In this document: piece after piece, positions 17,256-17,412 of the stretch | Layout of the letters: each line of letters opens with the position of its first letter | Numbering within the stretch: the first letter of the stretch is position 1 | Source of the DNA: an uncultured Clostridium sp. | Lineage (GTDB): Bacteria > Bacillota > Clostridia > TANB77 > CAG-508 | DNA length: 64,000 bases | Direction of reading: 5' to 3' | NCBI GenBank assembly: GCA_947653235.1 | Contig: CANTGH010000001.1 | Location: 247,191-311,190 of the forward strand | Made by a program: the position numbers and the translations under genes | The notes under the pieces: model-generated | The model's input: the letters and a program-made list of their open reading frames with translations, nothing else | Database searches by the model: none | What the model was told of the DNA's origin: nothing

Positions 17256-17412
17256 CTTAGGCGATTGCGAATCACCCCTACTACTCGTGCGATTAATGCA
17301 CGGTGCTAAACCAGATTTTATAACCCAATCGGCAAACCAATGTCCCACCAACTGAGGTACAAAGTTCGAAGGGACAGCCTCCCTCGTGCCAATTCTTAAA
17401 GGGCATAGCTCA
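17256..17412. other. GC-rich (~50% GC) structured noncoding element between pgsA and ligA. It may be an unidentified ncRNA or leader
   Basis: A ~155-nt segment whose GC content is far above the flanking DNA. It contains hairpins (CGTGC-gattaat-GCACG, GGGA-cagcc-TCCC) and possible pairing between its ends. The only ORF is an unlikely 63-aa one. Confidence 0.3.

Follow-up and report, generated by a model that had tools for sequence, protein, structure and literature searches.

The spacer between pgsA and ligA in the DNA analysed here, a 64,000-nt stretch of the genome of an uncultured Clostridium sp. (hereafter the window), holds a real non-coding element of ~125 nt (17279–17403), restricted to a clade of two sister species of uncultured gut Clostridia. 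The element lies outside the described RNA families and is probably a small structured RNA; the overall case, made from two sequences, is suggestive, not proven. With a probability of about 0.4, the reading that we slightly prefer is a small RNA (sRNA) on the plus strand of the window, transcribed convergently to the UPF0182-pgsA-ligA operon. The reason for slightly favouring the plus strand over a role on the sense strand is a canonical plus-strand terminator in the sister species. Transcription of the element, its strand, the ends of the transcript and any target are what we infer here from DNA.

The comparison that carries the case is with a single homologue. In the sister species, represented by the contig L152 (Logan SRR9335148; PgsA 83% identical), the homologue lies directly after pgsA, and the gene order is pgsA, element, a gene of 165 amino acids (aa), ligA; the product of the 165-aa gene is membrane-anchored and of no known family. 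With the L152 element as query, nhmmer hits window positions 17279–17360 with an E value of 6.5e-10. This homologue surfaced only after a search for PgsA homologues with look-up of their contigs, which gave relatives 78–84% identical, closer than the earlier genome representatives. The conserved parts are the following.

17279–17403, conserved element proper, homologous to L152:1793–1971 by alignment and nhmmer.
17333–17346, invariant block 1, GGGACAUUGGUUUG on the minus strand and CAAACCAAUGUCCC on the plus strand, 14/14 identical to L152.
17301–17325, invariant block 2, GGUUAUAAAAUCUGGUUUAGCACCG on the minus strand and CGGUGCUAAACCAGAUUUUAUAACC on the plus strand, 25/25 identical to L152.
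17347–17366, variable linker, holding a conserved heptamer, CCUCAGU (17351–17357, minus reading).

Divergence between the two elements is strikingly uneven. Overall, 77 of 110 aligned nucleotides are identical (70%), with 56/64 (87.5%) in a 64-nt core and 21/46 (46%) in the rest of the element, the latter being the neutral level: four-fold degenerate sites of the two species are near saturation at ~44% identity (30/67 in pgsA and 46/106 in the UPF0182 gene). The core differs from the rest with a Fisher p of 5e-6 and from the neutral sites with a binomial p of 1.6e-12. Because divergence is uneven, and recent transfer would give uniform similarity, the pattern argues for purifying selection on the nucleotides and not for recent transfer. 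Furthermore, a 1-nt indel separates the invariant runs, so that the frame in which they are read differs from one species to the other, and the 25-nt run has no synonymous change although five of its positions are four-fold degenerate in the one frame that remains open; the constraint therefore acts on nucleotides, not on a protein. Extra sequence in the linker of L152, ~55 nt in total, folds into a separate hairpin.

The same comparison points to RNA-type structure, in hairpins H1 and H4 of the conserved element; a further hairpin, H5, lies outside it.

17367–17386, hairpin H1, minus reading CGAGGGA[GGCUG]UCCC(U)UCG, with 7 pairs and one bulge.
17286–17302, hairpin H4, minus reading CGUGC[AUUAAUC]GCACG, plus reading GUGCG[AUUAA]UGCAC, with one compensatory pair.
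17260–17276, hairpin H5, minus reading GGUGAUU[CGC]AAUCGCC, outside the conserved element.

In L152, H1 reads CAAAGGG..CCCU(C)UUG and keeps 7/7 pairs and the position of the bulge, with three pairs changed on both sides and about half of the positions identical. In a simulation in which at least 6 of the 14 stem positions were changed, the chance of keeping all pairs was ~0.0015. For H4, all five pairs are kept in both species on the plus strand, two of them via one-sided G-U/Watson-Crick changes; read on the minus strand, the stem of L152 either has a broken pair or slips. When the two sequences are folded together (hand alignment), the consensus beats column shuffles, with z-scores of −7.3 for the plus and −3.5 for the minus strand; the L152 element alone folds better than shuffles on both strands (z −2.1). 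The structured element proposed in the initial annotation is thus supported by comparative data, in that pairs are kept by compensatory changes, the generic mark of a structured RNA, in three pairs of H1 and one of H4, between two sequences. A two-sequence helix dot plot was uninformative, with too many short G/U-rich helices.

The search for further copies covered ~1.06 Mb of related DNA, with up to 10 kb per locus; it included 80 genome loci found with a ligA query (65–81% amino-acid identity) and 58 metagenome loci found with a pgsA query. The relatives found with ligA are uncultured Clostridia, some named Candidatus Scatovivens. Both genes are present, with pgsA directly upstream of ligA, in 51 of the 138 loci, most of them with 6–75 nt between the genes. 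None of these 51 spacers has similarity to the element by nhmmer, blastn or tblastx, and elsewhere in the ~1.06 Mb no element was found by nhmmer, blastn or a covariance model. A covariance model of the core matched, in the window and the related loci, only its training sequences and one contig of the same species. In total, none of the more than 60 related species examined yielded the element, whether at the spacer or elsewhere in the fetched DNA. Of the 8 nearer relatives found via PgsA homologues, 7 likewise lack it; their spacers are as follows.

L149, 70 nt.
L154, 16 nt.
L155, 40 nt.
L162, 27 nt.
L164, 73 nt.
L156, 133 nt, AT-rich.
L168, 288 nt, with a decayed HD-domain gene.

The initial annotation had made its case depend on conservation of the spacer in related genomes; conservation is lacking in all relatives but one, and in that one, L152, it is strong and uneven. 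Since the related spacers are without the element, it is neither a housekeeping RNA nor a general ligA leader. In several other relatives the pgsA-ligA spacer holds inserts unrelated to the element, namely a small membrane (transmembrane, TM) open reading frame (ORF) in L004, an HD-domain gene in L083, a zinc-ribbon/TM ORF in L097 and L069, an 82-aa ORF in L101, and a 115-nt near-perfect hairpin in L082 (−47.7 kcal/mol, z −8.3). Such variety marks the spacer as an indel hot spot of the clade. Inserts are also listed at L023 and L096–L098. Beyond the related loci, exact-pattern scans with one 22-mer against metagenome contigs and with five patterns against viral contigs gave no match, and blastn against phage and plasmid collections gave only chance 30-nt matches. 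The invariant 21-mers were found in no paper. Within the 64-kb window, short-word blastn gave no further copy.

The evidence on the strand centres on one feature at the edge of the element.

17394–17418, imperfect palindrome TCTTA..TAAGA, straddling the pgsA stop codon.

The palindrome, TCTTAA...TTAAGA, is common to species with and without the element (the window, L152:1777–1803 and L156:~2090–2120). The L152 version is a perfect 12-bp stem whose sequence also codes for the final residues of PgsA, and on the strand antisense to pgsA it is followed by ATTTTTAC, at the edge of the element. This arrangement is terminator-like in a scan, the hairpin has a z-score of −2.9, and the whole L152 antisense RNA has a z-score of −3.6. 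In addition, 21/21 consensus pairs are kept on the plus strand, four of them via one-sided G-U/Watson-Crick changes. Of the two options raised in the initial annotation, a ligA leader on the minus strand and a convergent sRNA on the plus strand, both strands are retained and the ligA leader is weakened, as in L152 the 165-aa gene lies between the element and ligA. The constant neighbour is the 3′ end of pgsA, and ligA is not tied to the element.

In the scenario that we propose, the element would have been gained once, in the common ancestor of the window species and its sister, in the indel-prone pgsA-ligA spacer, and would since have been kept by purifying selection on its nucleotide sequence. 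A neighbour-joining tree of PgsA, in which the two species are sisters, fits a single gain. The element would consist of the hairpins H1 and H4, kept by compensatory changes, with the variable linker and the 14- and 25-nt invariant stretches between them. Read as an sRNA on the plus strand, it would have H4 as its 5′ hairpin, followed by the unpaired, C/A-rich invariant stretches GCUAAACCAGAUUUUAUAACC and CAAACCAAUGUCCC, which may pair with a target RNA or bind a protein, and then by H1; transcription would end at the palindrome over the pgsA stop codon.

Several observations weigh against this proposal. The window's counterpart of the L152 terminator is degenerate and without a T-tract, and the window has instead a 7-bp stem, GAGGUAC/GUACCUC, followed by UUUU; the palindrome that underlies the L152 terminator is ancestral, occurring also in the element-less L156. 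A scan of the window for promoter-like and terminator-like sites was blank at the element on either strand, so that the plus strand has no promoter-like site, and a promoter picked by eye in L152, TTGATT-17-TAATAT, matches only 8/12. One helix, UUGG/CCGA in one species and UUGG/UCAA in the other, has two one-sided, wobble-compatible changes that favour the minus strand. RNAalifold energies are nearly equal between the strands (−19.0 and −19.6 kcal/mol), and covariation comprises a handful of pairs in two independent sequences. Folded alone, the element as it stands in the window is on a par with dinucleotide shuffles (z −1.1 for the minus strand, −0.3 for the plus strand, −0.04 once flanks are included), and evidence for structure therefore comes only from comparison with the homologue. 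In this respect the initial description of short hairpins and complementary ends stands in part: short hairpins exist, whereas the single-sequence fold is at the level of shuffles and the complementary ends amount to one 9-nt inverted repeat, 89% complementary. The minus strand is almost certainly transcribed, given the position of the spacer within an operon and the lack of a terminator; the same certainty does not extend to the plus strand. Finally, PgsA of L152 is 86% identical to that of a group without the element and 83% identical to that of the window; because raw identity thus puts L152 nearer to the element-less group, the single-gain scenario stands or falls with the neighbour-joining tree.

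The main rival, a real possibility at odds somewhat against it, is that the element acts in cis on the sense strand, as a structured intercistronic segment of the UPF0182-pgsA-ligA mRNA. Such a segment could be a determinant of the pgsA 3′ end, of processing or of stability, or a leader of the downstream cistron, ancestrally the 165-aa gene and now ligA. The flanking genes are all on the minus strand and the gaps in most relatives are short, so pgsA and ligA would be co-transcribed, and with no terminator in the spacer on that strand the RNA would certainly be made. The element starts right at the pgsA stop codon in both species, the fully kept H1 is strand-neutral, the UUGG helix pairs through its two one-sided changes on the minus strand only, and the minus-strand consensus fold also beats shuffles. 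However, there is no visible expression platform, be it a terminator/antiterminator pair or a helix that sequesters a ribosome-binding site (RBS); past the conserved core, the sequence up to the RBS of the downstream gene has diverged; on this strand the H4 of L152 slips or has one pair fewer; the two species have different genes downstream of the element; and invariant runs of 14 and 25 nt exceed the needs of a stabilising hairpin cluster.

It is quite unlikely that the element is a functionless leftover, either a foreign or mobile scrap or a decayed gene, that resembles L152 through recent shared origin. An indel hot spot with unrelated inserts in relatives, a foreign-looking G+C content, the restriction to two species and the missing folding signal in the window sequence alone would all suit such an origin. 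The uneven divergence would not, nor would an H1 that keeps every pair at ~50% identity. The element has no translated or nucleotide similarity to inserts or genes in 170 related loci or the window, including the HD-domain gene, the small TM ORFs and the L082 hairpin, so that it was rejected as a relic of relatives' inserts, and nothing like it was found in phage, plasmid and viral collections. Terminal inverted repeats and a target-site duplication, marks of a miniature inverted-repeat transposable element, were not found: the inverted arms that were found, a 17-nt pair with 76% complementarity and a 9-nt pair, are not at the ends of the element, the 8-nt direct repeat CTAAGGAA does not flank it. 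The 64-kb window has a single copy of the element, with no further one in the 1.06 Mb of related loci. We consider improbable a site acting at the level of DNA, whether an internal promoter or operator of the downstream gene or genes, or a recognition site for a protein or recombinase at an integration hot spot. It would explain long invariant runs without covariation, GGGACA and TATAAA (by eye, minus strand) conserved at a spacing of 18/19 nt, and the insertion of different genes here in different lineages. Yet the promoter scan is blank, and the by-eye match is 9/12, without the T at position 6 of the −10 hexamer and with a variable, over-long spacer; the three compensatory changes of H1 and the one of H4 are left unexplained; and no recombinase or integrase appears in gene calls or Pfam scans of the nearby genes of the window or L152.

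A small protein is very improbable as the product of the element. The candidates are two ORFs on the minus strand, one of 63 aa (17250–17441) and one of 38 aa (17290–17406). The former is open across the whole element and is called as a gene on one Logan contig, and by eye a VIKSGLAP frame ends in an ATGA overlap with the next start codon in both species. Among 5.8 billion proteins, however, the ORF matches only itself, and concatenated stop-free stretches of the other five frames have no match. The 1-nt indel between the species and a 1-nt deletion in the same-species contig L143 break the frames, the 25-nt block has no synonymous change at a four-fold-site identity of 44%, there is no RBS, and the amino-acid composition is unlike that of the host. 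An exhaustive phmmer scan returned four proteins, all internally repetitive, with scores summed over 3–9 repeats; we take these hits as artefacts of repeat proteins because the best single stretch has 31 bits and ~400 such stretches are expected by chance in the library. One protein of the representative library, P0125 (241 aa), is a G+C-rich call with three ~76-aa tandem repeats, and its segment WLADWVAQSGLVPVYNR resembles the core translation with 16/27 identities and 31 bits, a likeness judged to be chance at library scale. The initial treatment of the element as non-coding holds, as both candidate ORFs are broken by the L143 deletion and no frame has a protein homologue.

The probability that the element is a divergent housekeeping RNA, such as signal recognition particle (SRP) RNA, 6S, 5S or a tRNA-like RNA, is practically negligible. 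The resemblances in its favour are short and were seen by eye: GAAGGGACAGCC is similar to SRP domain IV, GCCGAU.GG / GAGUAGUAGGG to 5S loop E, and CUCAGUUGGU is D-loop-like. None of the 4227 models of Rfam 15 matches the element in the window at gathering scores, nothing lies inside it at E ≤ 10 in 501-nt and 201-nt slices, and the L152 element has no match above noise and none at E ≤ 10; ARAGORN found 0 tRNA or tmRNA genes in the whole window. Rfam finds in the window only an S-adenosylmethionine (SAM) riboswitch (3749–3849, minus strand, 74 bits) and an L10 leader (57839–58019, minus strand, 49 bits). Riboswitches and leaders of a known class (SAM, T-box, NAD+ and others in Rfam 15) were rejected, as no model matches the element in the search that detects the SAM riboswitch and the L10 leader. 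SRP RNA (RF00169/RF01854) has no hit at gathering score or at E ≤ 10 in the window or L152, and, being universal and essential, would be expected across related species, whereas 51 syntenic loci and 7 nearer relatives lack the element, both in the spacer and in the rest of the DNA fetched for those loci. For 6S RNA (RF00013) there is no Rfam match, and the folds on both strands are multi-hairpin, not a rod. A 5S rRNA or 5S pseudogene also has no Rfam match, and local alignment to the 5S sequences of E. coli and B. subtilis was no better than to shuffles (p 0.2–0.9, about 0.4). The initial annotation had recognised by eye no SAM, T-box, tRNA, tmRNA, RNase P or SRP class, which agrees with the blank Rfam and ARAGORN searches; its suggestion of a 6S-like, SRP-like or other housekeeping RNA falls, given the lack of an Rfam match and of the element in the spacers of related species.

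The element also stands out in composition. Positions 17257–17412 have 48% G+C against a window mean of 32.5% (standard deviation 5.4%), and 0.26% of the 155-nt windows in the whole 64 kb are as G+C-rich. All other intergenic stretches of at least 90 nt in the window have 15–36% G+C; the SAM riboswitch has 41% and the L10 leader 31%. A G+C-rich island between pgsA and ligA had been reported initially and is borne out (top 0.3% of 155-nt windows); it covers the pgsA-proximal part of the spacer, which itself runs from 17224 to 17412. The other most G+C-rich 155-nt windows lie at ~10800–11400, ~26800 and ~47600, the first of them in ORFs 10397–10888 and 10964–11776 on the minus strand. An assembly artefact is ruled out by the presence of the element in nine further public assemblies of the same species, seven of them identical, one (L147) identical to the end of its contig and one (L143) with a 1-nt deletion at ~17349. 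The same-species copies are uninformative on constraint because their flanks are equally identical (99.8–100%).

The genes and the remainder of the spacer are arranged as follows.

17413–18006, minus strand, pgsA, 197 aa in public gene calls, Pfam PF01066 (CDP-alcohol phosphatidyltransferase) with E 8.6e-41, 100% identical to P0002.
15232–17223, minus strand, ligA, 663 aa from the ATG at 17223, with Pfam NAD-dependent DNA ligase domains and a start aligned with homologues.
17224–17259, minus strand, part of the spacer next to ligA, with the ligA RBS and a short upstream ORF.

The stop codon of pgsA is TAG (17415–17413), and its open frame extends to 18051; the 197-aa protein P0002 has 16 contigs on record. 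The open frame of ligA reaches 17253, where an in-frame ATG is found. Alignment with homologues, which share the start MTKEEAKK..., with the RBS AGAGAGGAAAA in front, places the start at 17223 and not at 17253, and the pgsA-ligA spacer is therefore 17224–17412. Every neighbouring gene is on the minus strand: the gene for the UPF0182 protein (17960–20809), pgsA, ligA and ruvB. The UPF0182 gene and pgsA overlap (17960–18051) by 92 nt for the longest pgsA frame (212 aa) and by 47 nt for the 197-aa call. The gap between ligA and ruvB (14909–15231) is 323 nt long and contains a 79-aa ORF (14973–15212, minus strand); ruvA was not seen beside ruvB in the part of the window examined.

The left flank of the element, CCCTTTAAGAATT, just past the pgsA stop, is common to L156, and H5 is common to L149, where its homologue GGCGATTATTAATCGCC lies in the 70-nt, element-less spacer, so that both are older than the element; H5 is not conserved in L152. 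The 35 nt nearest to ligA are similar to the L082 spacer (p ~0.004) and also to the start of the 165-aa gene of L152, RBS and first codons included (p ~0.006). The short upstream ORF before ligA (ATG at 17246–17244, product MIIKRGKL, stop overlapping the ligA ATG) may be a relic of the start of the lost gene (MNQKRSIV). These likenesses suggest that the ancestral order was pgsA, element, 165-aa gene, ligA, and that the window lineage lost the gene and kept the element; if so, the function of the element would be independent of the 165-aa gene.

The spacers also yielded some side observations. The motif GAATGAAAAATGA of the ligA-proximal stretch (17220–17259) is found again in the spacers of L082, L149 and L156. 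The apical part of the L082 hairpin (1005–1120) recurs after pgsA in L069 (2950–2996), at 79% over 47 nt and with an apparent compensatory change (CGUAC..GUACG against CAUAC..GUAUG), and may represent another small conserved element in the same place. In L153 (~676–732), the contig NODE_24070 (ERZ14237982) ends in the Illumina adapter AGATCGGAAGAGCGTCGTGTAGGGAAAGAGTGT just past the ligA start, an assembly contaminant.

If the element is a functional RNA, it is a young, clade-specific regulatory RNA whose origin is visible, in a spacer that has repeatedly gained and lost small genes, and strong constraint on it persisted after the window lineage lost the downstream gene. It would then make a clean case for how new bacterial small RNAs or cis-elements arise. 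A more ambitious view, which we regard as unlikely, is that it founds a new class of structured regulatory RNAs, acting in cis in the operon mRNA or in trans as an sRNA, with its 39 invariant nucleotides as a binding site for a ligand, a protein or another RNA; such a class would be recent, confined to one small clade, and placed where a gene of phospholipid synthesis adjoins that of the replicative DNA ligase. Practical value is restricted by the uncultured hosts and the two species, and more exciting readings are removed: the element is neither a missed housekeeping RNA nor a riboswitch of a known class.

Compared with known systems, the element shares with SRP and 6S RNA only the size range and the G+C richness; the loop of H1 is a pentaloop, GGCUG/CAGCC, there is no GNRA-capped domain IV, and there is no long rod with a central bubble. 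With REP-type stabilisers and sRNAs derived from 3′ untranslated regions (3′-UTRs), and intercistronic or 3′-UTR elements generally, it has in common a place after a stop codon in an operon, G+C richness, several hairpins and no sense terminator. Unlike these, it is single-copy and not dispersed in the DNA searched, the 64-kb window and the ~1.06 Mb of related loci, and it has long invariant unpaired stretches, for which a stabiliser hairpin would have no need. Orphan RNA motifs of the Weinberg type are usually backed by far more evidence than two sequences, and the element matches none of the 4227 Rfam 15 models; it resembles such motifs in being a G+C-rich island in an AT-rich genome, with conservation and compensatory changes in a homologous intergenic region. 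From the sRNAs of Firmicutes that have C-rich unpaired motifs and an intrinsic terminator (e.g., RsaE/RoxS, RF01820) it differs in having no covariance-model match to sRNA families, no convincing promoter and, in the window, no canonical terminator, and in its restriction to two species. In architecture, however, the putative plus-strand RNA is reminiscent of these sRNAs: it would share their size, ~150–210 nt, and have a 5′ hairpin, unpaired C/A-rich stretches that include UCCC, further hairpins and, in the sister species, a canonical terminator on that strand.

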